Shown here: piece by piece, positions 1,251-18,493 of the stretch
Numbering within the stretch: the first letter of the stretch is position 1
Layout: each line of letters starts with the position of its first letter
NCBI GenBank assembly: GCA_045638205.1
Contig: JAZUAY010000171.1
Coordinates: 1-26,357, forward strand
Source: Bacilli bacterium
Lineage (GTDB): Bacteria > Bacillota_I > Bacilli_A > RF39 > UBA660
Reading direction: 5' to 3'
Length of the DNA stretch: 26,357 bases
Notes under the pieces: generated by a model
Seen by the model: the letters and a program-made list of their open reading frames with translations, nothing else
Told to the model about the DNA's origin: nothing
Databases searched by the model: none
Translations under genes and position numbers: made by a program

Positions 1251-1766
1251 ATGCAAACTATAATTATAAATGAAACAAATTTACATGATGAAGATATTCA
1301 AAAGATTGGAAATAAAGCAAGAGCAATCTTATTATCAGATGATAAAATATTGGTATCACATTATGGTGGAGTTGTTTTATTGCCAGGTGGTTCTATTGAT
1401 AAGGGCGAAACTGAAAGTGAAGCAATTATCAGAGAACTAAAAGAAGAAACCGGAGTTGTTTATGATATAAATAGTTTAAAAGAATTATTACTTCTCGAAT
1501 ACTACCAACCTAATTATCCAACTCGAAGGGATGAGGTTATTAATAGATTAATAAGAACTAAATTTTATCTTGCTCAGTACAAAGGTATTAATTTGGAGAG
1601 TATTAATAGAACTGAAAATGAAGTTAAAGATAATTTTCGTTTAGAATTAATGAAATTAGATGAATTCATTGAATCAGTGAATTTATTATCCAATAATCCT
1701 AGAAAAAAGTATTTTGATAGGGAAAATCAAGAAGTAGTAAAAGTATTAAAAAAGATTAAAAATTAA
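1251..1766 (+). CDS. NUDIX hydrolase
   Basis: Nudix box GGSIDKGETESEAIIRELKEETG. Confidence 0.9.
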   Translation: MQTIIINETNLHDEDIQKIGNKARAILLSDDKILVSHYGGVVLLPGGSIDKGETESEAIIRELKEETGVVYDINSLKELLLLEYYQPNYPTRRDEVINRLIRTKFYLAQYKGINLESINRTENEVKDNFRLELMKLDEFIESVNLLSNNPRKKYFDRENQEVVKVLKKIKN

Positions 1767-1895
1767 GGAAGAAATTTCTATATGTTGCCAGGTGGAAGAA
1801 TAGAAGAATTGGAAGAAAGTATAGATACAATAAAAAGAGAAATAAAAGAAGAAATTAGATGGGATAATGTAACTTATAAAAAAAGAGGTGTGTGA
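1767..1895 (+). pseudogene. Remnant of a second NUDIX gene
   Basis: Directly after the NUDIX stop, the same frame reads GRNFYMLPGGRIEELEESIDTIKREIKEEIRW, a Nudix box without its N-terminus. Confidence 0.65.
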
Positions 1896-3080: not shown

Positions 3081-3303
3081 AGGAGTAGATATAAATGAAT
3101 AATAATGAAAATGTTGCTAAAACCAATATCAACTGGTTGATATTGATTTAGTCTAAGTTTCATTCAAACTCCTATAAAATAAAGAAAAAACAAGTATATG
3201 CTTGTTACATAATTTAATAAAAATATATAGAAATAATTATAAAAATAACTAAAAAAGCATCAAAAATGGCATAGTATTTGATACTTGGTATTGACGGTTA
3301 AAG
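3081..3303 (+). repeat. Junction J1: rbgA 5' remnant (MNNNENVAKTNINW) + S1 + type-A leader + S2
   Basis: RBS aggag 3081, ATG 3095, TGG 3134-3136. S1 TTGATATTGATTTAGTCTAAG at 3137, S2 TTGGTATTGACGGTTAAAG at 3285. Confidence 0.9.
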
Positions 3304-3365
3304 AGGTGTAAGTATGAAAATATATGGTATAATATTAATTGTCAGATAAATGAAAGGATGATATT

Positions 3366-3614
3366 ATGAAGAGTGCTGAAGAATTTATGAATGAGTTTAT
3401 GAGTACTTTACATAACATGAAAAAGTATCAGCGAATAGACATTACTAGACCAGAAACATATTCCGGAGATTTTGATAAAGTTCATGATGCATTTGATATT
3501 GAAAAAAATGTAGTTGCTACAGTTAAAGCTGAAGAAATATCTAATGTTGTTGCAGATTCACCTAAATTATTAAGACTTACCAATAAAAAAAATAATTTAT
3601 CAATTGAATCGTAA
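3366..3614 (+). CDS. Hypothetical 82-aa protein (copy 1)
   Basis: ORF with RBS aaagga and upstream TGgTATAAT. Near-identical copy at 6273-6521 (2 aa differences). Confidence 0.7.
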   Translation: MKSAEEFMNEFMSTLHNMKKYQRIDITRPETYSGDFDKVHDAFDIEKNVVATVKAEEISNVVADSPKLLRLTNKKNNLSIES

Positions 3615-3633
3615 GATTAAGATATTGCGCTTT
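3606..3633. repeat. 28-bp 11-6-11 imperfect palindromic site (family 2)
   Basis: GAATCGTAAGA-TTAAGA-TATTGCGCTTT. It overlaps the stop codon of the 82-aa gene. Confidence 0.75.
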
Positions 3634-3747
3634 GCCATATTACCAGGCAATTCTTATGGCTAGCTTGTTGTTTATTTAGTCTAAGGTAAATAATTAATAT
3701 AAAATGGGACGAAACTATACTAAATTTCGCCTTTTTTATGCTATAAT
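3634..3747 (+). repeat. Cassette tail: inverted rbgA PGHMA half-site (X) + S3 + extended -10 promoter
   Basis: GCCATATTACCAGG at 3634 (reverse complement CCT GGT AAT ATG GC). S3 TTGTTGTTTATTTAGTCTAAG at 3665. GCCTTTTTTATGCTATAAT at 3729-3747. Confidence 0.85.
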
Positions 3748-3757
3748 TGAATAGAAA

Positions 3758-3975
3758 TGGAGTGATTCCTATGAATAATAAAACTAATATAAATTGCTTG
3801 AGCATGATTTATCTAACCCCTTTAACAAATCCTTATAAAATAAGGGAAAATTGATAATTTGATCTTACATCTTTTATATAAAAAGTAAGTAAAAATGTAC
3901 AAAAAACACCAAAAATCATTAAAAATGGAGCTTTTTTTATATATTTTTGATAAGGTGATGTTTCCCGCTAACCCC
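3758..3975 (+). repeat. Junction J2: rbgA 5' remnant (MNNKTNINC) + S1 + type-B leader + S2
   Basis: ATG 3771, TGC 3795-3797. S1 TTGAGCATGATTTATCTAACCCC at 3798, CCTTATAAAATAAGG box, S2 GTGATGTTTCCCGCTAACCCC at 3955. Confidence 0.9.
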
Positions 3976-4007
3976 ACCATAAAATAGGGATTTATAAAAT
4001 TATAAGT

Positions 4008-4035
4008 AAATCGTAAAATAGTAATATTACGATCT
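4008..4035. repeat. 28-bp 11-6-11 palindromic site (family 2) upstream of the ABC-F gene
   Basis: AAATCGTAAAA-TAGTAA-TATTACGATCT. The arms are 9/11 complementary. Confidence 0.75.
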
Positions 4036-4210
4036 TTTGTCAATATAAAAAATATAGTATAATATATATGACATATAAGTGCACAATTAATAATTCTACA
4101 TATAATTAAAGAAAGAGAAAAGTCAGTGAATTATATTTTTTAGCAATTGACAAATATTGAAAAATTTAAAATTTAATGATAGTATAAAAAACTAAATAAG
4201 AGGTGATAGC

Positions 4211-5704
4211 ATGTCAACAATAAGTGTAAGCAATCTTACATTTGGTTACGACGGGGGATACACTAACATCTTTGAAAACGTTTCATTTAATATAGATTCT
4301 AATTGGAAATTAGGATTTGTTGGAAGAAATGGTAGAGGTAAAACAACTTTTTTAAATTTATTACTAGGTAAATATGAATATCAAGGAACAATTAAATCGG
4401 ATTTGATATTTGATTATTTTCCATTTGAAATAAAAGATAAATCAAAAAATTCTTATGAAATAGCAGAAGAAATAGTACCGTATTTTGAAACTTGGAAATT
4501 AAATTGTGAGATTTCTCAATTAGGAATGGACTTAAGCATATTAGAAAGATCATTTGAAAATCTAAGTAAAGGAGAACAAACACGAGTTTTACTTGGATTG
4601 ATGTTTTCTAAAGATAATAACTTTTTACTTATAGATGAACCTACTAATCACTTAGATATTGAGGCAAGAAAAATTGTCGCTGATTATTTAAATAGTAAAA
4701 AAGGGTTTATTTTAGTTTCTCATGATAGGCGCTTTTTGGATAATTGCATAGATCATGTTTTATCCATTAATAAAACTAATATTGAAGTTCAAAAAGGGAA
4801 TTTTAGTTCATGGTGGGAGAATAAGCAAAGACAAGATAATTTTGAGTTAAATCAAAATGAAAAATTAAAAGGTGAAATATCTAGATTAGAAAAATCTGCT
4901 AGACAAACAGCAAATTGGTCTGATAAAGTAGAAAAAAGTAAATATAATATTAAACAAGGTGTTGTACCAGATAAAGGTTATATTGGACATAAAGCTGCTA
5001 AAATGATGAAAAGATCTTTAGTTGCACGCAATCATAAAGAAAAAGCAATTGAGGAAAAATCAAAATTATTAAAAAATATAGAAACAATGGAAGAACTAAA
5101 AATTAGTCCAACAATTTATAGGAGTAATAAACTGTTGGAAGTATCAAATCTTAGTGTTAATTATGGAGATAGAGATTTATTTGATAAAATTAGTTTTTCA
5201 GTAAATAGGGGAGATAGAATTGAACTAAAAGGAAAAAATGGTTCTGGAAAATCTAGTTTAATCAAATTGCTTTTAGGGCAAAAAATAAAGTACAATGGTG
5301 AACTGTATTTACCCAATGATTTAAAAATTTCATATGTTTCACAAGATACGTCTTATTTAAAAGGAAATTTAAAAGATTTTATAATGGATAATAATATAGA
5401 TGCCACATTATTTATGTCAATATTAAGAAAATTAGATTTTGATAGAAAAGAATTTGATAGAAATATTGAAAGTTATAGTGAAGGCCAAAAAAAGAAAGTA
5501 TTATTAGCTAAGAGCTTATCTGAACAGGCTGATTTATATGTATGGGATGAACCGTTAAATTATATAGATATTTATTCAAGACTACAGATTGAAAATTTAA
5601 TTTTAGATTATAATCCTACGATGATATTTGTGGAACATGATGAAACATTCTCAGATAAGATTGCAACAGATAAAATAGAGATAAAAAACACATCGCAATA
5701 TTAA
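4211..5704 (+). CDS. lsa: Lsa-family ABC-F ribosomal protection ATPase
   Basis: Two ABC domains (GRNGRGKTT, GKNGSGKSS; LLIDEPTNHLD, YVWDEPLNYID). The N-terminus (NIFENVSFNIDSNWKLGFVGRNGRGKTTFLNLLLGKY) and linker (DKGYIGHKAAKMMKR) closely resemble Lsa(E)/Lsa(B) as recalled. The allele cannot be assigned without a search. Confidence 0.8.
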   Translation: MSTISVSNLTFGYDGGYTNIFENVSFNIDSNWKLGFVGRNGRGKTTFLNLLLGKYEYQGTIKSDLIFDYFPFEIKDKSKNSYEIAEEIVPYFETWKLNCEISQLGMDLSILERSFENLSKGEQTRVLLGLMFSKDNNFLLIDEPTNHLDIEARKIVADYLNSKKGFILVSHDRRFLDNCIDHVLSINKTNIEVQKGNFSSWWENKQRQDNFELNQNEKLKGEISRLEKSARQTANWSDKVEKSKYNIKQGVVPDKGYIGHKAAKMMKRSLVARNHKEKAIEEKSKLLKNIETMEELKISPTIYRSNKLLEVSNLSVNYGDRDLFDKISFSVNRGDRIELKGKNGSGKSSLIKLLLGQKIKYNGELYLPNDLKISYVSQDTSYLKGNLKDFIMDNNIDATLFMSILRKLDFDRKEFDRNIESYSEGQKKKVLLAKSLSEQADLYVWDEPLNYIDIYSRLQIENLILDYNPTMIFVEHDETFSDKIATDKIEIKNTSQY

Positions 5705-5753
5705 GATATTAGGAATTGAGAAATCAGTTCCTTTTTTAGTAATCTTACGATGT
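5690..5753. repeat. 64-bp composite: family-2 half-sites in inverted orientation around a terminator-like hairpin
   Basis: ACATCGCAATA-TTAAGA...AGGAATTGA-GAAA-TCAGTTCCT-TTTTT...TAGTAA-TCTTACGATGT. It overlaps the ABC-F stop codon. Confidence 0.8.
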
Positions 5754-5801
5754 ATTAAAAAATAATAAAGTATGATATAATACCAATAGGTTGGTGATAT
5801 T

Positions 5802-6140
5802 ATGAAACATGAAATGAAATTAAATAATGGTCCTTTTATGAATATTAAAAATGGTACTAAGACAATTGAGTTAAGATTAAATGATGAGAAAAGGAAATTG
5901 TTAAAAATAAAAGATTTAATTGAATTTACTAATAGGGAAACATTGGAACAATTGTTAGTAGAAATAGAAAATCTATATCATTATCCTTCATTTGAAGAAT
6001 TATATAAACACTTTGATAAAGTTGCTATGGGATATAAGGAAGATGAAGAAGCTGATCCAAAAGACATGGAAGAATATTATTCAAAAGAAGAACAAGAAAA
6101 ATATGGAGTTTTAGGAATTGAAATAAAAAAAGTGAGATAA
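5802..6140 (+). CDS. ASCH/PUA-like domain protein (copy 2)
   Basis: 100/112 aa identical to 2719-3057 (counted by eye). Confidence 0.85.
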   Translation: MKHEMKLNNGPFMNIKNGTKTIELRLNDEKRKLLKIKDLIEFTNRETLEQLLVEIENLYHYPSFEELYKHFDKVAMGYKEDEEADPKDMEEYYSKEEQEKYGVLGIEIKKVR

Positions 6141-6211
6141 TCGTAAGATTAAGATATTCCAGTACATTAAGATGAGAAATTATCTCATCTTTTTTAGTAA
6201 TATTGCGATGT
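6138..6211. repeat. 74-bp composite: family-2 half-sites in inverted orientation around a terminator-like hairpin
   Basis: TAATCGTAAGA-TTAAGA...AAGATGAGA-AATTA-TCTCATCTT-TTT...TAGTAA-TATTGCGATGT. Confidence 0.8.
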
Positions 6212-6272
6212 AATTAAATAATGAAAATATATGGTATAATATTAATTGTCAGATAAATGAAAGGATGATATT

Positions 6273-6521
6273 ATGAAGAGTGCTGAAGAATTTATGAATG
6301 AGTTTATGAGTACTTTAGATAACATGAAAAAGTATCAGGGAATAGACATTACTAGACCAGAAACATATTCTGGAGATTTTGATAAAGTTCATGATGCATT
6401 TGACATTGAAAAAAATGTAGTTGCTACAGTTAAAGCTGAAGAAATATCTAATGTTGTTGCAGATTCACCTAAATTATTAAGACTTACCAATAAAAAAAAT
6501 AATTTATCAATTGAATCGTAA
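6273..6521 (+). CDS. Hypothetical 82-aa protein (copy 2)
   Basis: Part of a duplication of ~3315-3800 at ~6222-6707. Confidence 0.7.
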   Translation: MKSAEEFMNEFMSTLDNMKKYQGIDITRPETYSGDFDKVHDAFDIEKNVVATVKAEEISNVVADSPKLLRLTNKKNNLSIES

Positions 6522-6540
6522 GATTAAGATATTGCGATTT
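6513..6540. repeat. 28-bp 11-6-11 palindromic site (family 2)
   Basis: GAATCGTAAGA-TTAAGA-TATTGCGATTT, directly abutting X at 6541. Confidence 0.75.
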
Positions 6541-6654
6541 GCCATATGACCATGCAATTCTTATGGCTAGCTTGGTGTTTATTTAGTCTAAGGTAAATAA
6601 TTAATATAAAATGGGAGGAAACTATATAAAATTTCGTCTTTTTTATGCTATAAT
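6541..6654 (+). repeat. Cassette tail: X + S3 + extended -10 promoter
   Basis: GCCATATGACCATG at 6541. S3 TTGGTGTTTATTTAGTCTAAG at 6572. TGcTATAAT ending at 6654. Confidence 0.85.
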
Positions 6655-6664
6655 TGAATAGAAA

Positions 6665-6885
6665 TGGAGTGATTACTATGGATAATAAAACCAATATTAA
6701 CTGGTTGATTTCAATTTAATTAAGAGCACTCCTAAAACCATATAATATAAGGGAAAATGTAAAAATACATCTTACATGTTTTTAATAAAAATAGTTAAAA
6801 AATACTAAAAAATAGCAAAATAAGTTAAAAATAAGTAAATTTTTACTAAGAAGTTGCAAGGTGATTACAAAAGTTAAGAACATAT
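6665..6885 (+). repeat. Junction J3: rbgA 5' remnant (MDNKTNINW) + S1 + type-B leader + S2
   Basis: ATG 6678, TGG 6702-6704. S1 TTGATTTCAATTTAATTAAGAGCA at 6705, S2 GTGATTACAAAAGTTAAGAACA at 6861. Confidence 0.9.
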
Positions 6886-6902
6886 AAAGAAGAGGTGAAT
6901 TT

Positions 6903-7580
6903 ATGAAATATATAATGCAAAATAATGAATCAAATTATAATGAAGTAATAGCTAATATTATTAATAATAGAAAAAAAGAAATATTTTCTTTTTTTAACAG
7001 TAAGGAAATTGATTTACCAGTTACTATATATGTTTATAATAGCATTGAAGAATTAGTTAATGGAATGAGAAAAAGAGGATACAAAAATGATCCTGACTAT
7101 ATGTGTGCATGCCAAAAAGATGAAGATAATTCTTTAAATTATTTTGAACCTAGGGATAATCCAGGTGAAAAGGAATGGTCAAAAGAAGAGTATAAGAATG
7201 TAATATTTCATGAATTAATTCATTGTATACAATTTAATCTATTTGGAACTACTCTTGAATGGATAAATGAAGGAATAGCTAAATATTTAGATGGTACATA
7301 TTCAAAAGGAATTAAATGGTTATTAGATAATTATATAAATAATAATCCGATTCCTAATCAAGATGAGATAGAGAATGAATTTGGTATGCATGAATATGAT
7401 AGTTATGATTATGCATATTTAATGGTAAGTTATATAATTGATTATTATGGTAAAGATACATTGATTGATTTATTGAAAAATAAAGAAAAATATGAAACTA
7501 TAAAAAAAGATTTATTAATAAAATCAATTGATTATTATAATATGAAATATAATGAAGAAAGTTTTTTTAAAAGTATATAA
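6903..7580 (+). CDS. Putative zinc metallopeptidase (HExxH, gluzincin/peptidase MA-like)
   Basis: IFHELIHCIQ followed by WINEGIAKYL. Confidence 0.7.
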   Translation: MKYIMQNNESNYNEVIANIINNRKKEIFSFFNSKEIDLPVTIYVYNSIEELVNGMRKRGYKNDPDYMCACQKDEDNSLNYFEPRDNPGEKEWSKEEYKNVIFHELIHCIQFNLFGTTLEWINEGIAKYLDGTYSKGIKWLLDNYINNNPIPNQDEIENEFGMHEYDSYDYAYLMVSYIIDYYGKDTLIDLLKNKEKYETIKKDLLIKSIDYYNMKYNEESFFKSI

Positions 7581-7607
7581 AACTTTCTTTTTATTTATAA
7601 TTATTAA

Positions 7608-7723
7608 TTGGCCATATGACCTGGTGAGAATTTTAAAATAACTGATTACGCAATATTTAAGAACATATAAATGACATAAATTTAGACAAATTAGTACAAA
7701 ATCTGCCTTTTTTATGCTATAAT
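7608..7723 (+). repeat. Cassette tail: X + S3 + extended -10 promoter
   Basis: The reverse complement of 7608-7624 is CCAGGTCATATGGCCAA, a 16/17 match to rbgA 17654-17670. S3 TGATTACGCAATATTTAAGAACA at 7643. GCCTTTTTTATGCTATAAT at 7705-7723. Confidence 0.9.
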
Positions 7724-7756
7724 TTTAATGATTTTAAATCGAGAAAGTGATGTTAC

Positions 7757-8191
7757 ATGGAATTAAATGAATATATGAATCAAGATGTTTTTAATCCAAA
7801 ATATTTATTTCACGGAACAGCTCATGAAATAGATAAATTAGAATTAAGACAATCAACTGATAATGAAAATAAAGATAATGAAGACAATGCAATATTTTTA
7901 ACTAGTTCAATCTATACTGCAGCGGCTTATGCTTTTAGTAGACGATTGAAAGAACAAAATGAGAATTATTCATTTTCTATGAATAATAATGGAGAATTAC
8001 CAGCAATGGTATTTGAAGTAGAAAATTTACCAGATGATTTATGTGGTTATATTTATATTTTTGAAAAAAGTGAAGATATGATTAAAGATAATCACGAGTT
8101 CACAACTCAATATAGATGCTATCATGATTTAACACCACAAAAAGTTATTAAAGTTAATTATAGAGATTTTGAAGAATTTTTCAGCAGATAA
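7757..8191 (+). CDS. Hypothetical protein, possible ADP-ribosyltransferase-like fold
   Basis: YLFHGT...AIFLTSSIYTAAAYA resembles the H-G-T / Y(F)-x-T strands of ART-fold proteins. This is motif-level evidence only. Confidence 0.45.
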   Translation: MELNEYMNQDVFNPKYLFHGTAHEIDKLELRQSTDNENKDNEDNAIFLTSSIYTAAAYAFSRRLKEQNENYSFSMNNNGELPAMVFEVENLPDDLCGYIYIFEKSEDMIKDNHEFTTQYRCYHDLTPQKVIKVNYRDFEEFFSR

Positions 8192-8217
8192 AATTAAACT
8201 AAAAAAATATAGATTTA

Positions 8218-8385
8218 AAGGAGTTGATTCAAATGAATGAAAATAAAACTAATATAAACTGGTTGTAGTGATTAACATCTTTCATGTTATGATAAAATAT
8301 AGTTAAATTTAATAAAAAAAGATCAAAAATGATTAAAATATGTTAAATATTATGTAGGAATTAAGGTATTGATTACGATACAGTA
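8218..8385 (+). repeat. Junction J4: rbgA 5' remnant (MNENKTNINW) + shortened leader + S2
   Basis: AAGGAGTTGATTCAA-ATG 8233, TGG 8260-8262. The leader lacks ~50 bp including the CCTTAT box. S2 TTGATTACGATAC at 8369. Confidence 0.85.
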
Positions 8386-8412
8386 ACTAATTCGTGATGG
8401 GAGGAAATTATA

Positions 8413-8583
8413 GTGAATATAGTTGAAAAAGTGCAGTTTTTAAAGAATTATAAGAAAAATTTAGAAACAACTGCAAAACTTGTTGAAAGATTTAAATTAA
8501 AGGGCGATTTAACTCGTAGTATTGATGATACTATAGGGTATTTAGAAAAAGAAAAAATAAAAATTAAATATAAAGTAAAGTGA
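8413..8583 (+). CDS. Small hypothetical protein, 56 aa (MNIVEKVQFLKNYKKNLETTAKLVERFKLKGDLTRSIDDTIGYLEKEKIKIKYKVK)
   Basis: GTG start with GGAGG RBS. It fills the cargo slot between J4 and J5 and is below the ORF-track cutoff. Confidence 0.6.
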   Translation: MNIVEKVQFLKNYKKNLETTAKLVERFKLKGDLTRSIDDTIGYLEKEKIKIKYKVK

Positions 8584-8587
8584 AATT

Positions 8588-8811
8588 AAGGAGTTGATTC
8601 AAATGAATGAAAATAAAACTAATATAAATTGCTTGATTACGATTTATTTAACCCCTTTAAGAACTTCTTTATTTACAAGGCTTTGTGAGAATTAGCATCT
8701 TGCATGTTTTATATAAAAATATGTTAAATAGATAAAAATTAGTAAAAGATGACTATTTTTAGTTAAAAATGTTGTAGGAATTAATGAGGTGATTACACCT
8801 TTTAACCCCTA
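8588..8811 (+). repeat. Junction J5: rbgA 5' remnant (MNENKTNINC) + S1 + type-B leader + S2
   Basis: ATG 8603, TGC 8630-8632. S1 TTGATTACGATTTATTTAACCCCT at 8633, S2 GTGATTACACCTTTTAACCCCT at 8789. Confidence 0.9.
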
Positions 8812-8832
8812 GATAAAAATGAGGTGAAGTGT

Positions 8833-9405
8833 ATGTCCAAAATATCTAAAAATATTAAAATGCTAGATATATTATCATCTGGGAAAATATATAGTTGTAA
8901 GAAACTAGCAGAAATGTTAGAAGTTAGTCCAAGAACAGTTAGACAATATAAAGATGAATTAGAAAAAGAAGGATTATATATTGAAAACATAATGGGTAAA
9001 AATGGTGGATATAGACTTTGCTCTAAAGTTGAAATACCTTCTATTTTGTTTAATAAAAATGATATAGATAAAATTAATTCAATAATAGATAAATTATCCG
9101 ATGATGATAAAAATAAATTAGAGAATATTAAAGAAAAAATTAATACTTACTGTAGATTAGTAAGTGATAGAGATAACATAAATATTGAAGATAAAAATAA
9201 AATAGATATAATACAAAATGCAATTAATAATAAGAAAAAAATTACTATAGAATACTATAGTAAAGGAATTAAAAAATCAAGAGATATATTGCCAATTCAA
9301 ATATATGTATATGAAAATATGATTATGGTAGTTGTTCATTATTCGGATGATCCAAGTGACATAAGACATTTAAATTTAAAAAGAATCGAAAAAATAATTA
9401 TATAG
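8833..9405 (+). CDS. HTH (wHTH) + WYL domain transcriptional regulator, short form
   Basis: N-terminal LAEMLEVSPRTVRQYKDELEKEG...GKNGGYRL (YafY/PafB-type HTH). C-terminal AINNKKKITIEYYS...RDILP...IRHLNLKRIEKI (WYL). RBS gaggtg before ATG 8833. Confidence 0.8.
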   Translation: MSKISKNIKMLDILSSGKIYSCKKLAEMLEVSPRTVRQYKDELEKEGLYIENIMGKNGGYRLCSKVEIPSILFNKNDIDKINSIIDKLSDDDKNKLENIKEKINTYCRLVSDRDNINIEDKNKIDIIQNAINNKKKITIEYYSKGIKKSRDILPIQIYVYENMIMVVVHYSDDPSDIRHLNLKRIEKIII

Positions 9406-9551
9406 CAAAAGTACTTCCTACATTAGTGTTTATAATGAGTATAGAACATCTGGTAAAAGTCAATAGGTAATCGGCAGTTTTTTTGGAATAGTTTACTGCC
9501 TTATCAACAAAATTATTGCACACTAAAACGATTTTAGTATAAACTAAAATT

Positions 9552-9583
9552 ATTGATTCGCTATTTATAAATAGCGAATCAAT
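9552..9583. terminator. Perfect 32-bp palindrome at the transposase stop
   Basis: ATTGATTCGCTATTTA|TAAATAGCGAATCAAT. Confidence 0.65.
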
Positions 9584-10859
9584 CGTTCTTTGAATTTTGA
9601 ACCGAGTCAATTGGTTTGTAATATTGATTTTTTCGCAGCAATCCAAAAATCAATCTTGCAAGTTTACGAGCAGATAAAACGAGTGCACGTTTATGTTGAT
9701 GTTTAGAAACTTCCTTAAATTTAAGATCATAATAATCTTTAATAAAAGGAAAGTTTTGTCTAACACAAGAAGCAGTAGCTTCAACTAAATAATATCGTAA
9801 ATATTTATTAGACTTTTTAGAAGATTTCTTATCCTGAGAATCGAATTCTCCAGACTGATTTCTTTTCCAATAAAGTCCAGAATATTTAGCAATTTTTGAG
9901 TTATGAGGAAATCTTTCAATATTACCAATTTCAGCCATAATACCAGCAGCATAGACTTTACCAATACCACGAATAGAAAGTAAGATATTATAGGTATTGG
10001 AATCAAGTCCTAAAGCAGTTGATAAAATAGCTTTATCAATATTCTTAAGTTGTTTTTGATAAAATTTAATAGTATTTAAAGAAGAAGCAATGGCAATATT
10101 GATTGGTTCATAAGCAGTTTGATCTAATCTGTAAGAAGCATGCATGGCTTTATTTAAAGTAGTAATCTTATCATCTACATTAGAAATATGATTTTTACTT
10201 TTTTCAGAAATAAAGTTAATTAAATCTTCTACAGATGAAGATGCAATAACATCTGGAGATACAAATTCTTCTAGAAAAGCGGAAGATGTAGCACCAAATA
10301 GGTCAGAAAAAGGTATATCATTTTTGTTACAAGAAACTAATCCAGAAAAAGATAAATATAAATTAGTTAAAATATAAGTCTTTTCTTTTATTAAGTTTTT
10401 ACAAATATGATATCTTTGTCTAGTAAGACGTTGAAGTGCAATGTATTGAGAACCTTTAAATGGATATAAAGCTTTAGTTCTGCCGACTCTTCCATAGTCA
10501 GCAAGAATATAAGCATCAATACCATCTTCTTTTTCTAAATCATGAAAACTTTTCTTATATTTATCAAAATCACAAGCATTGATTTGATAAACTTCAGTAT
10601 GAAAATTATTTAAATATTCATTAGAAGAAAGATAACAAGCAGGATGAAAAGAATACATGCCAGTAGATTCCATAACAATGATAATTTTATCAAAGAATAA
10701 TGTATCTTCAATATCTTTAATTTTATTAATAACCATATCGTTTCCTTCTGGATTATTGGGAAACTTAAGGTTAAAATAAATATGTTGATCAAAATTCATA
10801 ACGCAAAACTGATTACCTTTAAGACCTACATCAACACCAATGAACAAAGAGTTTTGCAT
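9579..10859 (-). CDS. IS110-family (DEDD) transposase/recombinase
   Basis: N-terminal FIGVDVG and VMESTGMY (RuvC-like DEDD), KEDGIDA..LA. C-terminal SIRGIGKVYAAGIMAEIGNIERF...YSGL...QSG...SNKYLRYYLVEA. ATG 10859 has RBS aggtgg. Confidence 0.95.
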   Translation of the reverse strand: MQNSLFIGVDVGLKGNQFCVMNFDQHIYFNLKFPNNPEGNDMVINKIKDIEDTLFFDKIIIVMESTGMYSFHPACYLSSNEYLNNFHTEVYQINACDFDKYKKSFHDLEKEDGIDAYILADYGRVGRTKALYPFKGSQYIALQRLTRQRYHICKNLIKEKTYILTNLYLSFSGLVSCNKNDIPFSDLFGATSSAFLEEFVSPDVIASSSVEDLINFISEKSKNHISNVDDKITTLNKAMHASYRLDQTAYEPINIAIASSLNTIKFYQKQLKNIDKAILSTALGLDSNTYNILLSIRGIGKVYAAGIMAEIGNIERFPHNSKIAKYSGLYWKRNQSGEFDSQDKKSSKKSNKYLRYYLVEATASCVRQNFPFIKDYYDLKFKEVSKHQHKRALVLSARKLARLIFGLLRKNQYYKPIDSVQNSKND

Positions 10860-11250
10860 AAGTATCACCACCTTTCGATAAAATATTTTGTGAAACATAA
10901 TAAACTACAGATACCCTTGCTTAAAAGTTTGACAACAACCTCGTTATAAGAATACATCTTTTGTTTAAGGATAATGTGCTGCGATTAAACTTAAAAAGAG
11001 AAACATCATCTGAGTTAGAAGGATGATAACTCATAAGTAGGGAAACATTCTAAACTAGTAAACATCATAAAGAGTTACAGGAGGGTTAAGAATAGATCCT
11101 AGTTATTATATTTCAATAAAATATAATAACACAAGGGTAAAAATAATCCATAGTTTTTACTATTTTTACTTATAAAAATAGAATAAATAAAAATAGTTAA
11201 TATAAGTGAAAAAATCACTTACAAAAACTATTATACGAGGAGGTATTTTT

Positions 11251-11601
11251 ATGTTAGATTTAGATCATATTGCAATTACCGTAAAAGATTTGAATGAATC
11301 TATTGTTTTTTATAAAAAACTGGGTTATGAATTATTAGAAAGATTTAGTGATGATGAATATAATTGGGCTACATTAAAGTTAAATAACCATTCATTAGAA
11401 TTATTTCAAATAACAAATGATAAGGAAAAACCAATTAATCATATTGCATATAGCTATGATAGTGATGAAGAAGTACTAGATTTAATTAAGCAATTAGGTT
11501 ATAAGAAAGAAAACATAGATATATTTTATGGTGATTTAAATAGAAAGAGTTTCTTTATTGAAGATAAAAATGGTAAATCAATTCAATTAATAAAGAAGTA
11601 G
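11251..11601 (+). CDS. VOC/glyoxalase family protein
   Basis: LDHIAITVKDLNESIVFYKKLG...LELFQ...INHIAY...FFIEDKNGKSIQL. RBS gaggagg before ATG 11251. Confidence 0.85.
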   Translation: MLDLDHIAITVKDLNESIVFYKKLGYELLERFSDDEYNWATLKLNNHSLELFQITNDKEKPINHIAYSYDSDEEVLDLIKQLGYKKENIDIFYGDLNRKSFFIEDKNGKSIQLIKK

Positions 11602-11713
11602 CCATATGGCCAGGTAATGTTATGATAAAAATTGATTACACTTAATTTAACCTATAATAAATGACATAAATTTAGACAGATTAGTACAAAATCTGCCTTT
11701 TTTATGCTATAAT
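11600..11713 (+). repeat. Cassette tail: X + S3 + extended -10 promoter
   Basis: The reverse complement of 11600-11614 is CCT GGC CAT ATG GCT (PGHMA, fully synonymous with rbgA). S3 TGATTACACTTAATTTAACC at 11633. GCCTTTTTTATGCTATAAT at 11695-11713. Confidence 0.9.
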
Positions 11714-11729
11714 TTTATTAATTTTATAA

Positions 11730-11895
11730 AAGGAGTTGAGTGGGATGAACGAAAATAAAACAAATATCAATTGGTTGGCTTGTATTTATGACGCACATCA
11801 CTTAAACCCATATAAAATGGGAACTTTTAAGAAATGAGATCTTGCAAGTTTTAATAAAAAAAGTAGTAAAAAATGAAAAAATAGATTAAAAATTA
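11730..11895 (+). repeat. Junction J6: rbgA 5' remnant (MNENKTNINW) + S1 + leader truncated before S2
   Basis: ATG 11745, TGG 11772-11774, CCCATATAAAATGGG box, GATCTTGCAAG box. The leader then runs into a BRO fragment. Confidence 0.85.
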
Positions 11896-11901
11896 CTCAT
11901 T

Positions 11902-12171
11902 GAAATAAGAAGTATTTGGAATTCTGAAAAAGAAGAATATTATTTTAGTGTAGTTGATGTTATTGCTGCATTAACTGATAATGATTATGATAAATCTAGA
12001 AATTATTGGAAATGGTTAAAAACTAGACTAAAAGATGAAGGCAGTGAATTGGTTAGTGATACTAACCAGTTGAAAATGAAAGCTAAAGATGGAAAAATGA
12101 GAGAGACAGATACTCTTGATACAGAAGGAATATTTAGATTAATAGAATCTGTTCCATCCAGTAAAGCGGAA
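11902..12171 (+). pseudogene. BRO-N domain fragment lacking a start
   Basis: EIRSIWNSEKEEYYFSVVDVIAALTD...RNYWKWLKTRLKDEGSE...LKMKAKDGKMRETD...RLIESVPSSKAE. Homologous to the N-half of 19507-20205. Confidence 0.85.
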
Positions 12172-12473
12172 GTGTTTTGTATAAAATGACATTGAATAAA
12201 AATATACAAGATATACTTTATTTTAAAGGAATTGTTGATTTTTATAAAGATTATGTAAAACTAGATATTACTGATAAAAAAGATAATCAAAACAATTGGA
12301 ATGTTATAGTATCAGTTTTAAGATAATCAAAGTGTCGTGTTCTTGTAATCATATAATTCGATAAATAAGTATGATTGTAAAAGTAAAAATATTAATTTTG
12401 ATTAGTTGCAACGTAAGGTATGTTTAATTACATATCTTTTTTTGTTGTGTAAAAAAGAAAGGAGAAATGATAT

Positions 12474-12821
12474 ATGGAATTAAATTATGCAATATTTAGA
12501 AGTGAACCTATTATGACTATACCTGATTTAGCACAAATAGGATCACATAATAAAAGGGAAAAGAAAGTGTATCAATCAAATAAAGATATTAAAATAGAAT
12601 TAAGTAAAAACAACATAGAACTTGTTCCTTTAAATGTTAAATATGTAAAAGGTTTTGATGAACTAACTAAAGAATATAAAAAAGAACACGAAGAAAGAAT
12701 GAAAACTGAACGAGCTGATAGAAAGAAAAGATACCATGAAATGTTAAATAGTTCTAAAAATGTTGTTGCTGATGAATTAGTTATGACTGCTTCACATAAT
12801 TTCTTGCTAGGTGAAATTTGA
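12474..12821 (+). pseudogene. Truncated MobV/Pre (Mob_Pre) relaxase N-terminus
   Basis: YAIFR...SHNKR...SNKDIKIELSKNNIELV...VVADELVMTAS resembles MOBV motifs I and II. It ends before the HxDExxPHxH motif. Confidence 0.65.
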
Positions 12822-12846
12822 CATTCATGCCTTTTTATGCTAGAAT
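12818..12846 (+). promoter_or_regulatory. Sigma70-type promoter related to the cassette-tail promoter
   Basis: TTGACA-17 bp-TAGAAT with a TG extension. The spacer GCCTTTTTATGC resembles the tail promoter. Confidence 0.6.
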
Positions 12847-12909
12847 ATAAGCCAATTTCAGCGAGAAGTATGTATTACTTAAATTATTATTTTCAATAAA
12901 TTATGGGGG

Positions 12910-13650
12910 TTGATTATAATGAAAAAGAATAAAAATATTGAAATGCGTATATATGAATTATTAGGGGTTAAAGTTTTTAGAAAAATGGCATTTGGTTTGC
13001 GTGATATATTAGCATTTCCATTAACTATTAGAATGAGTAAAGAAGAGAGACATAACTTTCTATATAATAGAGAAGGTAATTATAATTTAGGAAAAGTAAA
13101 AAGTTTAGAGGACGTTAAAAAATTTAAAAAACAATTGTTTATAAATTCAGGTATTCATGTATGGGCATTATCAGTTTGCCTTCCTAACTTTTTAAAAGTA
13201 ATTGGTGGTACTGCATCTTTATCTACAGCTATAATAACTTTAACTTGTATAGGTATAAATCTATACTGTATTATGCTACAAAGATATAATGGTATTAGAA
13301 TTACTCAACTTATTGAAAAAATGACTCCAAGATATGAAAGACAAAAAGATGCAATTAAAGAAGAACTAAGAAAAGAAGATTCATTACTTTTAGAACATAC
13401 ATATAAAATTGTAGATAAAAAAGAAAGAGAAACTAGTATAACTTTTGATGATTTAATTGCTAATGCTAATATTGAGCAACTTAAACAATATCGTGAGTAT
13501 TTAGCACATTTTCAAAATATTAATCAATTAATACAAGAAAATGATATCTCTGCTGAACATCAAGTAGTTGTAAGTATGCCAATGGAAAAACATAAAACAC
13601 TTAAATTGGAATTAAAACCTAATAAACATAACAACGGTGCTATTAATTAG
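12910..13650 (+). CDS. Membrane protein, possibly CrtO-like (glycosyl-4,4'-diaponeurosporenoate acyltransferase family)
   Basis: YELLGVKVFRKM...IHVWAL, a hydrophobic segment, then INLYCIMLQRYNGIRI. Motif recall only; the start codon is uncertain. Confidence 0.45.
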   Translation: MIIMKKNKNIEMRIYELLGVKVFRKMAFGLRDILAFPLTIRMSKEERHNFLYNREGNYNLGKVKSLEDVKKFKKQLFINSGIHVWALSVCLPNFLKVIGGTASLSTAIITLTCIGINLYCIMLQRYNGIRITQLIEKMTPRYERQKDAIKEELRKEDSLLLEHTYKIVDKKERETSITFDDLIANANIEQLKQYREYLAHFQNINQLIQENDISAEHQVVVSMPMEKHKTLKLELKPNKHNNGAIN

Positions 13651-13726
13651 CACTTTTGTTTTATAAAAAACTTATTTGATGACAAATAAGTAACACACTA
13701 CCAAGTCGGCATTTTGCCAACTAGGA

Positions 13727-14287
13727 TTGTGTGCCAAAGGAGAGCCTTTTAAGATGTGGTTAGCATCATTAGGTAAAGAAAGAATTGATGAGGTATTTGA
13801 TCCTGAAATAGCAGTTAATAGGGCTGTAGAATATTATCGCAAAAGAGGTTATGATGATAAATGGATTAAATCAAGATTAACTGGGATAGTTGATAGATTT
13901 AAATTAACTGATGTATGGAAAGAATCTGGAATTACAAAAGATTATGAATATGGAATTTTAACTAATGAAATATATAAATCATGGTCAGGAATGAAGGCAA
14001 GTGAATATAAAGCATACAAAGGTCTTAGAAAAGAATCATTAAGAGATAATATGACAGATATTGAAGTTGCATTAACGGATTTGGGTGAAATAGCAACAAG
14101 AGAACTAGCAAAAGAACATAAACCATATGGATTAGAACAAAATAAAAGAATAGCACGACGAGGTGGTAATATAGCAAAAATAACTAGAGATAATTTAGAA
14201 AAAGAATTAGGTAGAACTGTAATCAGTAATAAGAATTCATTAAATTATGAATATATAGATGAAAAATTATTAGAAGAAAAGAATTAG
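13727..14287 (+). pseudogene. BRO-family gene, C-terminal half
   Basis: KGEPFKMWLASLGKERIDEVFDPEIAV...KESLRDNMTDIEVALTDLGEIATRELAK. Homologous to the C-half of 19507-20357. The N-half is absent here. Confidence 0.85.
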
Positions 14288-14289
14288 AT

Positions 14290-14344
14290 AAATAACATAA
14301 ATTTAGACAGATTAGTACAAAATCTGCCTTTTTTATGCTATAAT
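14290..14344 (+). repeat. Partial cassette tail (promoter part only; no X or S3)
   Basis: AAATAACATAAATTTAGACAGATTAGTACAAAATCTGCCTTTTTTATGCTATAAT matches the tails at 7670-7723 and 11660-11713. Confidence 0.85.
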
Positions 14345-14359
14345 TTTAATGATTTTAAA

Positions 14360-14582
14360 AAGGAGTTGATCCAAATGAACGAAGAAAAAGGGTTAAATAA
14401 AACCGTAATCAACTGGTTGGTATTGATTTAGTCAAAGTATTTGAGAAGCTCCTATAAAATAAGGATTAAACAAGTATAAGCTTGTTACATAATATAATAA
14501 AAATATATAAAATAATGATAAAAATAGCTAAAAAAGTATCAAAAATAACATACTATTTGATACTTGGTATTGACGGTTAAAC
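14360..14582 (+). repeat. Junction J7: rbgA 5' remnant (MNEEKGLNKTVINW) + S1 + type-A leader + S2
   Basis: ATG 14375, TGG 14414-14416. S1 TTGGTATTGATTTAGTCAAAG at 14417, S2 TTGGTATTGACGGTTAAAC at 14564. Confidence 0.9.
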
Positions 14583-14605
14583 TTTTAAAAAACGAGGTGA
14601 TTTAT

Positions 14606-15184
14606 ATGAGTAAGATAGCAATTGATATTGATAATACAATTTGTAATACAAGTGATTTCTTTGGACCAATCGCAGAGAACTATGATAGAAATGTATTGCA
14701 TAAAAATAATGATATTAATTATGATAAAACAGTTCCTAGAAGTGATAATTGGACAAAAGAAGAACTTGCTTATTTTGTAGAAAACTATTTTAATAAAGAA
14801 GCTATAAATATTCCTATTAAAAAAGATGCTGTTATTTACATTAACAAACTTAAAGAATTAGGATTTGAAATAGTATTCATTACAAATAGAGGAATTAAAG
14901 AAGATGATCATTCTGATTTAATAGTTCCTGAATATTTAGAAAAAAATAATATTCCTTATGATAGTATAATTACTAAATCAAATGATAAATATATGTATTT
15001 AGAGGACTGTGCTTATTTTATAGATGATGCAATTCGTAATTGCGAACAAGCATTAGAAAAATCAAATGTTAAAGTAATCATGATGAGAACAAATAAAACA
15101 AAGAATTATGTTAATGAAGATATTTTAATAGTTAATAGCTGGGAAGAAATATATAACTATATAAAGCAATATAAAAGGAGGTAA
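14606..15184 (+). CDS. HAD-superfamily hydrolase (5'-nucleotidase-like)
   Basis: IAIDIDNTI (DxDxT), FITNRG, FIDDA. RBS gaggtg before ATG 14606. Confidence 0.8.
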   Translation: MSKIAIDIDNTICNTSDFFGPIAENYDRNVLHKNNDINYDKTVPRSDNWTKEELAYFVENYFNKEAINIPIKKDAVIYINKLKELGFEIVFITNRGIKEDDHSDLIVPEYLEKNNIPYDSIITKSNDKYMYLEDCAYFIDDAIRNCEQALEKSNVKVIMMRTNKTKNYVNEDILIVNSWEEIYNYIKQYKRR

Positions 15185-15245
15185 TAATCATGAACGATAA
15201 TAAAACTAGTATAAACTGGTTGATTATGACAGTTAAGAACATTGT
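15177..15245 (+). repeat. Junction J8: rbgA 5' remnant (MNDNKTSINW) with collapsed leader (S1/S2 hybrid)
   Basis: ATG 15190, TGG 15217-15219, then TTGATTATGACAGTTAAGAACATT running straight into the cargo RBS. Confidence 0.85.
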
Positions 15246-15263
15246 AAAAATGAGGTGGTCATA

Positions 15264-15806
15264 ATGGAAAATCTTGGTTTAGAAAGAGGATATTTAGAAT
15301 TACATGATTATAGAAAAGATTATCCTTCGATTTATGAAAAGGCAAAAGAAGAATTGTTAGATATTTATAAAGATAGAATTAAATATATTGACCATGTTGG
15401 GAGTACTAGTATAAAAGGAATTAAATCTAAACCTATTATTGATATCAATATTCAAACAGATGATTTAGATGATTTTAAAGAGTATACTGAATCTACTGTT
15501 GAGGGTGACATTTATACTGTAAAAAAAGAACCAACTTTAGGTGGAGATTATTTAATTAGAAAAGAAGAAGATGGAAAAGTAAAAGCATTTATACATGTCT
15601 ATAAAACTGGTGATATGAATGGCATAACTTCGATTATGTTTAGGGATTATATGAATTCACATGAAGATGAAGCGAAAAGATATGAAGCTTTAAAAATGGA
15701 ATTATATGATAAGTATAAGGATAACAGAAAAGAATATACACATGGAAAAGATAAGTATATTAAAGAAATAATAGCATTAGCCATGAAAGAAAAAAATAAA
15801 ATTTAG
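15264..15806 (+). CDS. GrpB-family nucleotidyltransferase-fold protein
   Basis: IDHVGSTSIKGIKSKPIIDINI...FRDYMNSH...YEALKMEL...YTHGKDKYI. Confidence 0.85.
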   Translation: MENLGLERGYLELHDYRKDYPSIYEKAKEELLDIYKDRIKYIDHVGSTSIKGIKSKPIIDINIQTDDLDDFKEYTESTVEGDIYTVKKEPTLGGDYLIRKEEDGKVKAFIHVYKTGDMNGITSIMFRDYMNSHEDEAKRYEALKMELYDKYKDNRKEYTHGKDKYIKEIIALAMKEKNKI

Positions 15807-15834
15807 GACATTGTAATTCTTTACTACTATATTT

Positions 15835-15948
15835 AGCCATATGACCATGCAACTAATTTAAAAAATTTGATTACATAATATTTAAGAACATATAATTGTT
15901 ATAAAATTAGACAGATTAGTACAAAAACTGCCTTTTTTATGCTATAAT
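15835..15948 (+). repeat. Cassette tail: X + S3 + extended -10 promoter
   Basis: GCCATATGACCATG at 15836. S3 TGATTACATAATATTTAAGAACA at 15868. GCCTTTTTTATGCTATAAT at 15930-15948. Confidence 0.9.
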
Positions 15949-15964
15949 TTTAATGATTTTAAAA

Positions 15965-16187
15965 AAGAGTTGATCCAAATGAATGAAAATAAAACAAATA
16001 TAAATTGGTTGATAACAATTTAGTCAAGACTACTCCTAAATCCTTATAAAATAAGGGGAAACTGAAAAATAGGTCTTGCATGTTTATGTCAAAATATATT
16101 AAAAATTGATGAAAATAAGTTAAAAAAGAGTAATTTTAAGTAAAAATTGCCTAGGAATTAATATAGTGAGAACTGATAGTCAAGACC
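15965..16187 (+). repeat. Junction J9: rbgA 5' remnant (MNENKTNINW) + S1 + type-B leader + S2
   Basis: ATG 15979, TGG 16006-16008. S1 TTGATAACAATTTAGTCAAGAC at 16009, S2 GTGAGAACTGATAGTCAAGAC at 16166. Confidence 0.9.
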
Positions 16188-16209
16188 AGCAAAAAAAGAG
16201 GTGATTATT

Positions 16210-16668
16210 TTGAAACGTAGTGCAGGTATTTTAGTTTATAAAATTGAGAAAAATGATATAAAAGTCTTACTTTGTCATTTTGGTGGACCATATTGGGAAA
16301 ATACTGATATTGGTGGATGGACTCTTTCAAAAGGTGAGGTTAGTAAAGGCGAAAAAGTATTAGAAACTGCGAAGAGAGAATTTATAGAGGAAACAAATTT
16401 AAATTTAACTGCTCCGATTGATTATCTTGGAACAAAGAAAATTAGTAGAAAAAAGTTAGCAATAATGTTTTATACTAATTCTGATTTTGAACTTTCTAAT
16501 TGTAAAAGTAATACTTTTGAACTTGAATTTCCAAAAGGTTCTGGTAATATAAAGTCATTTCCTGAAATGGATAAATATGAATGGATGAATCTTAATGATG
16601 CTAAGAAAAAAATAATAAAAAATCAGTTGTATTTTTTAAATAAATTAGAAGAAAAAATAGCCAGGTAA
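16210..16668 (+). CDS. NUDIX hydrolase
   Basis: SAGILVYK...HFGGPYW...GGWTLSKGEVSKGEKVLETAKREFIEETN. TTG start at 16210 after RBS agaggtg. Confidence 0.85.
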   Translation: MKRSAGILVYKIEKNDIKVLLCHFGGPYWENTDIGGWTLSKGEVSKGEKVLETAKREFIEETNLNLTAPIDYLGTKKISRKKLAIMFYTNSDFELSNCKSNTFELEFPKGSGNIKSFPEMDKYEWMNLNDAKKKIIKNQLYFLNKLEEKIAR

Positions 16669-16876
16669 TACTCATGAATGAAAATAAAACTAATATAAAC
16701 TGGTTGATTACGATTTATCCAAGAATAGTAGAAAACCTATATAAAATAAGGAATTGTGAGATATAACATCTTGCACGTTTTATATAAAAATATGTTAAAA
16801 CACGCAAAAATTAGTAAAAAATGGACATTTTTGATGTAAAAAGTGGTAGGAATTATGAAGGTGATTTCGCCACCTA
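16660..16876 (+). repeat. Junction J10: rbgA 5' remnant (MNENKTNINW) + S1 + type-B leader + S2
   Basis: ATG 16674, TGG 16701-16703. S1 TTGATTACGATTTATCCAAG at 16704, S2 GTGATTTCG at 16861. Confidence 0.9.
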
Positions 16877-16911: not shown

Positions 16912-17634
16912 ATGATTAATAAACCCATTATAGGAGTGGTAAGTAAACCAAATATTTTTTGCAGTGATAAATTATTTACCTCACAATTTGTTTATGATGG
17001 TGTTAGAAATGCAGTATTAAAAAATGGAGCACTTGTTATAGGAATACTACCAACAAAAATATCTACTGTATTTTGTGATTCAGATGAAGTAGTAAATAAG
17101 TCTGATTTTTCACAATCTGAATTAGAGGATTTATATTCATTAATTGATAGATGCGATGGTATAATAATTCAAGGTGGTTTATCTAGTGATGCTTATGAAA
17201 TAAAAGCAGCTAAGTATGCTATAGATAATGATATACCAATACTTGGAATATGTGCAGGATTTAATAATATTATTAGAGCAATGGGTGGTGAAGTTTTTTG
17301 TATTAATAATACAATTCATAATACTGAAGATGGTTCAATAGTTCACAAAAATATAGTTAAAGAAAATACTTTGTTATATGATATTTTAAAAAAGAAAGAA
17401 GTAGATGTTAATAGTATTCACACAATGTTTGCTAATGAAGAAAATATTAAAAATATGATTATTTCAGCGTATTCTGATGATGGCTATGTTGAAGCAGTAG
17501 AAATAAAAGATAAAAAGTTTTGTTTGGGTGTTAAATGGCATCCGGAATTAATGTTAGAAAATGAACAAATGAATAATATATTTAAATATTTTATTGATGT
17601 ATGCAAAGGAGTTGATCCAAATGAACGAAAATAA
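16912..17634 (+). CDS. Gamma-glutamyl-gamma-aminobutyrate hydrolase family (peptidase C26, class I glutamine amidotransferase-like)
   Basis: CDGIIIQGG, PILGICAGFN (nucleophile Cys), VNSIH, GVKWHPE. Confidence 0.9.
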   Translation: MINKPIIGVVSKPNIFCSDKLFTSQFVYDGVRNAVLKNGALVIGILPTKISTVFCDSDEVVNKSDFSQSELEDLYSLIDRCDGIIIQGGLSSDAYEIKAAKYAIDNDIPILGICAGFNNIIRAMGGEVFCINNTIHNTEDGSIVHKNIVKENTLLYDILKKKEVDVNSIHTMFANEENIKNMIISAYSDDGYVEAVEIKDKKFCLGVKWHPELMLENEQMNNIFKYFIDVCKGVDPNERK

Positions 17635-18493
17635 AACTAAGATAAATTGGTATCCAGGGCATATGGCCAAAACTAAAAGAGAAATAAAAGAAAGATTAAA
17701 TTTAATAGATGTTGTTTATGAAGTAATAGATGCTAGAATGCCTATATCTTCAAAAATAGTAGATATAGATGATTTATTAAAAAACAAAAAGAAGATTTTA
17801 ATTTTATCAAAGTATGATTTATGTGACAAAACTGAGACTGATAAATTCATAAAATATTATGAAGCTAAAGGTTATATTGTAATTCCAAGTGATCTTATTA
17901 ATGGTAATATTACAAAAATTCTTGATACTACTGAAAATTTAATGAAAGAAGAATTTGAAAAACGCGAAGCTAAAGGTCTTAATAAGAGAAATATTAGAGT
18001 ATTAGTAATAGGCGTACCTAATGCTGGTAAGTCAACCTTAATTAATAGACTTGTTGGTAAGAAAAGTGCAGGTGTAGGTGCCCGTCCTGGCTTTACTAAA
18101 CAACTTTCTTGGATAAGAGTTGGTAAAAATATTGAACTTTTAGACTCTCCTGGTATTTTATGGCCTAAATTTGAAAATCAAGAACATGCTAAAAACCTAG
18201 CAAGCTTGGCATCTATAAAACAAGAAGTTATTAATGAACTTGATTTAAGTGCATATATATTAAGGAAAATGGATATATTATACCAAGATAATTTATATAA
18301 TAGATATGGTATAAAAAATCTAAGTGAAGATTTAATAAAAGAATTAGATATAATTGCATCTAAAAGAGGAGCTTTAAGAAAAGGTGGTATTGCAGATTAT
18401 GATAAAGTAAGTAAACTCATTATAAAAGATTTACAAGATGGATATTTAGGTAAAATTACTTTTGATAGAATTAAAGAGGTAAAAGATGAATAA
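17621..18493 (+). CDS. rbgA: Ribosome biogenesis GTPase RbgA/YlqF
   Basis: [56 protein letters not shown] 17621 has RBS aaggag. Confidence 0.97.

Follow-up and report, generated by a model that had tools for sequence, protein, structure and literature searches.

Why should a cassette lodged in front of a housekeeping gene carry, within its own tail, an inverted copy of one half of the site at which it sits? The question is raised by a 26,357-nucleotide contig (JAZUAY010000171.1 of assembly GCA_045638205.1) from a Bacilli bacterium (GTDB lineage Bacillota_I; Bacilli_A; RF39; UBA660). Our window is this entire 26.4-kb contig, which belongs to a metagenome-assembled genome of 1.24 Mb and 25% G+C. 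Upstream of the true copy of the essential gene rbgA it holds at least ten cassettes arranged head-to-tail, and each of their junctions follows the same order: a ribosome-binding site (RBS), a stub of ten rbgA codons, a sequence termed S1 (TTGATTAC..), a leader of ~156 nt, a second sequence (S2) and the cargo. In rbgA itself, the first ten codons lead on to YPGHMAKT. At all junctions, ..AAYTGG is followed either by S1 or by the YPGHMA codons of rbgA, leaving a short identical core and a restored target gene, as in staphylococcal cassette chromosome (SCC) elements. Five tails within the array also contain an element, here called X, that reads as the reverse complement of the P-G-H-M-A codons and is followed at a fixed distance by S3, a copy of the cassette-side half-site. 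Our answer, tentative and a little short of an even call, is that X and S3 together form a putative recombinase-binding site at which no crossover takes place.

An inverted target half-site in the cassette tails

A reading of the window made without database searches (the sequence-only reading) had placed X at five points as an inverted copy of the PGHMA codons, and a pattern search bears this out. The pattern GCCATATGMCCWGG, allowing up to two mismatches, has six matches in the window, namely the five X copies on the forward strand and the rbgA codons at 17654-17667 on the reverse strand. Shuffled sequences gave an expectation of 0.10 matches and never reached six, and X is thus non-random. 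Shared modules indicate that the five copies represent two homologous families and not five independent events: family A (3634, 6541) is a duplicated 82-aa gene with its tail, 82-99% identical, and family B (7611, 11601, 15836) comprises copies of a single 134-nt module that are 79-85% identical. In all five copies an 18-nt spacer, differing in sequence, separates X from S3. The assertion that S3 begins exactly at offset +32 therefore holds within the window, but elsewhere the spacer is 17 or 18 nt (offset 31 or 32). Similarly, the description of X as differing from rbgA mostly at third codon positions has to be amended, as the second base of the Pro codon varies too, with a G opposite it in only 30% of modules. 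The proposed inverted orientation is the better one: every conserved X position then meets an rbgA-invariant base, whereas in the direct orientation several land on wobble sites. It also still holds, as had been argued, that simple Campbell integration would not yield an inverted target half. A supposed collapsed X at 16659..16669 (forward strand) fares less well, since its sequence (AGCCAGGTAAT) matches the RBS stretch AGGAGGTAATAATCATG (15170-15192) at 16 of 23 positions and is more likely an RBS variant. A mini open reading frame (ORF) starting from the ATG of X was dropped because it has no consistent RBS.

X extends well beyond this contig. A pattern scan of 185,579 species genomes returned 18 X-S3 loci, and a BLAST search of 400 genomes of the family found the module in six, adjoining rbgA in G121, G395 and G065. 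A scan anchored only on the terminator yielded 64 metagenome loci, with X and S3 present in ~53 of the 63 copies that had enough flank. Public records in which this module occurs bear the labels of uncultured gut and rumen Bacilli, Erysipelotrichaceae or Mycoplasmatota. The window, the 18 genome loci and the 64 metagenome loci together supplied 60 unique modules, from which the logo of X is T-N-GCCATATG-D-CC-W-D-G. Twelve of its positions are 88-100% conserved, while the spacer splits into several unrelated sequence families; its length is 18 nt in 43 and 17 nt in 14 of the 57 modules from other genomes and metagenomes in which it could be measured. Family A of the window differs in its terminator, yet it keeps both X and the 18-nt spacing. 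A conserved X beside a diverged spacer points to purifying selection on X and on the distance between X and S3, and not to the mere youth of the module.

The relation of X to its target is precise in extent. When inverted, the conserved X positions all meet invariant rbgA bases (C..GG.CATATGGC.A), the exception being the second base of the Pro codon, at which X is unconstrained; this freedom argues against repeated copying from rbgA as well as against a simple helix. Repeated re-copying was accordingly ruled out on the 30% figure given above. The homology to rbgA ends at X with sharp edges, and the idea that X and the spacer form a longer inverted fragment of the rbgA 5′ end was rejected when none of 41 spacers reached p<0.05 against shuffles. 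In modules that adjoin rbgA, X departs from the host sequence at one to three of 14 positions, mostly variable ones. Among the family genomes listed, many have a second match, CCCATATGTCCTGG, indicative of a further PGHMG-motif gene, maybe a paralogous GTPase.

X is the outermost element of a tail module of ~170 bp, in which it is followed by the variable spacer, S3, a short A/T-rich link, a hairpin with a T-run, TGnTATAAT, an RBS and the rbgA stub. From their sequences we infer that the hairpin is a terminator and TGnTATAAT a promoter; a strict promoter/terminator scan called neither in the tail modules. S3 occurs in classes (..AAGAAC, ..AACCCC, ..AAACCCC) that match the S1 class of their own cassette (37 unique pairs, permutation p ~0.001). 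Within a class, S3 and S1 retain their own type-specific differences, which indicates that the match reflects shared, class-specific recognition and not recent copying or conversion. Locus L160 shows S and the terminator module attached directly to an ordinary stub, and S is thus a real junction half-site. An ordinary stub is the left partner in only one of 63 terminator modules, which implies that X-spacer and S3-promoter normally move together.

Several further observations concern this module. The part from S3 to the stub stands behind an ordinary stub at L160 (~1340-1468) and behind a leader/S2-type sequence at L163 (~1600-1800, reverse strand), and everything downstream from the start of S3 resembles a promoter cassette devoid of cargo, by analogy with the ORF-less promoter cassettes known from integrons (PMC6557892). 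The tail promoter at 7681-7724 precedes a 144-aa ORF (7757-8191; weak ART-PolyVal and DUF3990 matches), with no stub until 8233. At 15867-15896, S3 (TTGATT) and a TATAAT 18 nt downstream score 10/12 as a sigma-70-type promoter just before the hairpin, which may be chance in A/T-rich DNA. A dif/Xer-like identity of S was dropped, the resemblance being limited to some S3 copies. A second palindromic site family, ATCGTAAGATTA..TAATATTGCGAT, lies between genes within cassettes (3608-3633, 6515-6540, 5692-5753, 6140-6205), either compact or split around a terminator-like hairpin, and its right arm adjoins X in the window and in ~9 of 60 modules elsewhere (e.g., L136, L162, L183).

A candidate accessory site for a serine recombinase

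The only recombinase gene in the window is of the IS110 family, and no IS110 homologue was found in 89 other X-bearing loci (475 kb), which makes the window gene incidental to X. It shares a cassette with a short HTH-WYL gene (8824-9405) that may have been truncated by the IS110 insertion, and contigs C14 and C178 of the genome carry two further IS110 genes, distinct from this one. No Phage_integrase domain occurs among the window ORFs; the five tyrosine recombinase matches of the genome are on other contigs. Relatives, in turn, do place a recombinase at the end of the element beside the attachment site, an arrangement found neither in the window nor on its contig. In G074 a 412-aa protein with Resolvase, Recombinase and Zn_ribbon domains is encoded by the last gene of a cassette, just before the stub/S1 junction and 1.7 kb upstream of an X module. 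Homologues of this enzyme are present in at least four X-bearing loci. Among 30 loci fetched for its best homologues in the 400 family genomes, rbgA lies directly downstream on the same strand in 15, each with an rbgA N-terminus supplied by the element. In L224 (G255:C17), L227 (G249:C21), L223 and L225, a pair of large serine recombinase genes (~574 + 534 aa) immediately precedes rbgA in the same orientation, each supplying it with a new N-terminus, a pairing reminiscent of CcrA/CcrB. A serine recombinase probably drives the cassette arrays. The rbgA half-site measures ~18-20 bp and the cassette half-site ~24 bp; those of known large serine recombinases are ~20-25 bp, and the sizes here fit. 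In one cassette class, a direct reading of the sequence finds TATGRC inside the half-site of the cassette itself, about as far from the junction as it is in rbgA.

Taken together, these features suggest how X and S3 might work. X mimics the rbgA-side half-site (B′), turned so as to read as a left arm, and S3 copies, within the same class, the cassette-side half-site (P′) that comes after every stub, such that recombinase subunits might dock on X and S3 as they would on B′ and P′ at true crossover sites. X and S3 are 17-18 bp apart, against ~4 bp in real junctions, and lie ~140 bp from the real junction of the cassette. This gap, wider by ~13 bp, would make the pair an accessory site and not a crossover site, with a role that may be architectural, recruiting or regulatory: it could recruit the enzyme, shape the synapse, help to retain the cassette, or affect the promoter that lies between X-S3 and rbgA. 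A protein-binding mimic of the right arm of the target had been one of three readings proposed for X, and it is the best supported of them, fitting the retention of invariant bases, the fixed distance to S3, the selection and the association with recombinases; that a recombinase binds X, and what such binding would achieve, we infer from sequence.

Several points weigh against this proposal. To our knowledge, no accessory sites have been described for large serine recombinases. Of the six serine recombinases encoded by the window genome, none is closely related to the 412-aa enzyme (28% identity at best), and the array of this genome is truncated on the left where the contig stops. X can also be dispensed with, since many cassettes have plain tails: at 15190, at 16674, in the last cassette and in several relatives, the stop codon leads straight to the RBS and stub. 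Finally, the clustered identity boundaries considered in the next section would also fit a site of actual DNA exchange.

Alternative readings of X

The foremost competing explanation, which we consider unlikely, is that the border of X-spacer and S3 is itself a working crossover junction, a secondary attachment site that swaps the promoter-bearing tail or the cargo between cassettes. Mosaicism speaks for it: the same cargo end (a 97% identical gene) is found with three different spacer/S3 lineages, homology stopping four bases after X (X+4); the points where identity breaks off are concentrated at the left edge of X (-3 to +1, ~67 pairs) and at spacer/S3 (+28 to +31, 36 pairs); and L160 (stub/S + terminator) and L163 (leader/S2-type/terminator) provide other left partners of S3. 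As sequence patterns, however, the boundary clusters may reflect either a selected backbone around variable cargo or real exchange, selection alone being able to produce boundaries at the edges of conserved elements. Moreover, all 18 X-S3 pairs that were found regardless of downstream sequence carry the same terminator module next, and the scarcity of ordinary stubs before terminator modules (one in 63) implies that the module rarely moves alone. Directly to the left of S3 there is no left-arm motif, and X stands 17-18 bp away, beyond the reach of half-sites of ~20-25 bp.

It is improbable, in our estimation, that X serves a different DNA-binding protein, for instance one regulating the tail promoter, and owes its likeness to rbgA to something other than recombination. 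X does lie ~100 bp upstream of TGnTATAAT, and S3 with its following TATAAT is also promoter-like, but this account leaves unexplained both the identity of X to the rbgA half-site at 13 of 13 constrained positions and its tie to a class-matched copy of a recombination half-site. We give equally little credence to X as a functionless relic of a young, fast-spreading module. Near-identity of the terminator-promoter part between genera suggests that it spread recently; against this, the spacer beside X has diverged into unrelated families, a second family whose terminator differs (3634, 6541) has retained X and its 18-nt spacing, and the homology to rbgA is sharp-edged, without decaying flanks.

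A still less probable suggestion is that X acts as RNA, the 3′ end of the cargo transcript pairing with codons 12-16 of rbgA mRNA in cis (by read-through) or in trans. Located between the cargo stop codon and the hairpin/T-run, X should be transcribed, and where the module adjoins rbgA it is complementary at 12-13 of 14 positions. Nevertheless, it would be strange for a helix to keep position 13 of X at 98% conservation when position 12 is paired in just 30% of modules; the RBS would not be covered by the pairing; and most X copies do not adjoin rbgA. Nor does X follow the wobble bases of its host: among five distinct rbgA-adjoining modules the third Pro base matches in three and the third Gly base in one, a comparison of low power that lends no support to covariation. 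RNAalifold found no consensus structure in 43 X-S3 segments (mean z of single folds, 0.04), and a search of Rfam returned no match at E<=1; a structured RNA over X-S3 was ruled out on these two results.

The same results bear on the second of the original proposals, by which X would be a guide that base-pairs with rbgA, as a bridge-RNA-like RNA or as a folded single strand akin to the inverse core of an integron attC site. Recognition of rbgA by base pairing in single-stranded DNA or RNA would be stranger still than a first accessory or secondary site of a large serine recombinase, and we regard it as very unlikely. An IS110-family gene does lie within the array, and the position of X right after the cargo stop recalls the integron inverse core. 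Yet the guide proposal is not supported: X does not track host codons, neither an Rfam match nor a conserved fold was found, S3 is in sense orientation, unlike a right-donor guide, and X has no partner within the cassette. A link of X to IS110 and its bridge RNA was ruled out by the lack of any homologue in the 89 other X loci. The third proposal, that X and the PGHMA codons are the ends of an invertible segment, is the least plausible of all, for although the two form inverted repeats ~170 bp apart where the module adjoins rbgA, a flip would separate rbgA from its start codon, no flipped form appears among ~90 loci, and conservation is lacking at the base pair where, counting from X, the crossover would be expected.

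The array and its relation to known systems

The features of the window, together with the recombinase gene of G074, are collected in Table 1. The cargo of the cassettes includes NUDIX, ASCH, ABC-F, peptidase, glyoxalase, GrpB and glutamine amidotransferase (GATase) genes. The ABC-F type ATPase (4211-5704), with two ABC_tran domains, is an example of the resistance-type cargo that such arrays bear. Within the genome, the cassette repeats are confined to the window contig, with no other copy of the array. A cassette ORF at 13727-14287 has 77-85% DNA identity to the 3′ half of a Bro-N gene (19507-20205) that lies outside the array, downstream of rnhB; the RNase HII gene itself (18486-19481) encodes 331 aa, with ~140 residues preceding the RNase_HII domain (141-315).

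Table 1. Positions of X, S3 and associated features (window coordinates unless a contig is named).
Feature	Position	Strand	Sequence	Remarks
X, all five copies	3634, 6541, 7611, 11601, 15836	+	GCCATATGNCCNNG	reverse complement of rbgA codons P-G-H-M-A (17654-17667)
X	3634..3647	+	GCCATATTACCAGG	tail-module family A
X	6541..6554	+	GCCATATGACCATG	family A; duplicate of 3634 module
X	7611..7624	+	GCCATATGACCTGG	family B
X	11601..11614	+	GCCATATGGCCAGG	family B; overlaps stop codon of glyoxalase-family cargo gene
X	15836..15849	+	GCCATATGACCATG	family B
S3, copy of cassette-side half-site	7643..7666	+	TGATTACGCAATATTTAAGAACAT	18 nt past X
Further S3 starts	3666, 6573, 11633, 15868	+
Hairpin + T-run + extended -10	7681..7724; also 11671-11714, 15906-15949	+	TGcTATAAT (extended -10)	putative terminator and promoter
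Hairpin/promoter part	14302-14345	+		without X or S3
Hairpin/promoter part, family A version	3706-3748, 6613-6655	+
Cassette array	3131..16703	+
Stub/S1 junctions	3131, 3792, 6699, 8257, 8627, 11769, 14411, 15214, 16003, 16698	+	AAYTGG/TTG..
rbgA	17621..18493	+		cassette junction after codon 10 (..INW/YPGHMA)
Target-side half-site in rbgA	17654-17667		CCAGGGCATATGGC
IS110-family transposase gene	9579-10898	-		DEDD_Tnp_IS110 + Transposase_20; non-coding DNA to ~11190
412-aa recombinase	G074:C32 5779-7017

We found no description of rbgA cassette arrays in the literature searched. They look like a serine-recombinase gene-capture system of uncultured gut and rumen Bacilli, in which an optional but conserved X-S3 module suggests that the binding, retention or exchange of cassettes is under additional control. 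X, whose role is putative, is of interest to recombination specialists. Should a recombinase indeed bind X, nature would here provide a site more elaborate than the plain attP/attB pair that large serine recombinases are assumed to use, and the module could be of help both in understanding cassettes and in designing integrase tools. The bolder claim, that X-S3 is the first accessory or secondary site of a large serine recombinase and the counterpart of the attC inverse core in a separate, serine-based system, seems to us rather improbable.

The 5′ end of rbgA is already known as a target of integrative and conjugative elements (ICEs) of the Tn5253/Tn5252 type, which integrate in the first 17-20 nt of its coding sequence and restore that sequence through a duplicated attachment sequence (PMC8571831; PMC4701971). 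These are large, conjugative elements of streptococci and enterococci with tyrosine integrases, for which neither cassette arrays nor an X-like element have been reported (PMC8571831; PMC4701971). Neither a tyrosine integrase nor a conjugation module, the traits of a Tn5253-like ICE, was found among the window ORFs. The bridge RNA of IS110 elements shares with X the property of being an element-borne sequence complementary to one half of a target, but no IS110 gene lies near other X copies, no structured RNA is present and the logic of orientation does not fit.

SCC and SCCmec islands, mobilized by the Ccr large serine recombinases, provide a closer likeness. In both systems, units with or without a recombinase pile up at a single point within the end of a conserved housekeeping gene, with repeated junctions and restoration of the gene, and large serine recombinase genes, single or paired, lie beside the target. 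The cassettes described here differ in being one-gene sized and in targeting a 5′ end, so that each unit must supply a promoter, an RBS and a start codon. We know of no SCC element in which an internal, inverted target half-site paired with a second cassette half-site has been described. Integrons, for their part, have promoter-fed cassette arrays and, in the attC inverse core (R″), a short inverted copy of the crossover-side sequence right after the cargo stop; the rbgA tail likewise acts like a cargo-less promoter cassette, as at L160. Unlike integrons, the window has no IntI-type tyrosine recombinase, X-S3 does not form the foldable hairpin of attC, and X is complementary to the host target and not to the end of its own cassette. 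A further comparison is with sites II and III of res in Tn3/gamma-delta, where the half-site motifs of the crossover site are likewise repeated close by with altered spacing, and cleavage of these repeats is not expected. The accessory sites of res, however, consist of two like half-sites and serve small resolvases, whereas X-S3 couples a target-type half-site to an element-type one, and the enzymes encountered here belong to the large serine recombinases.

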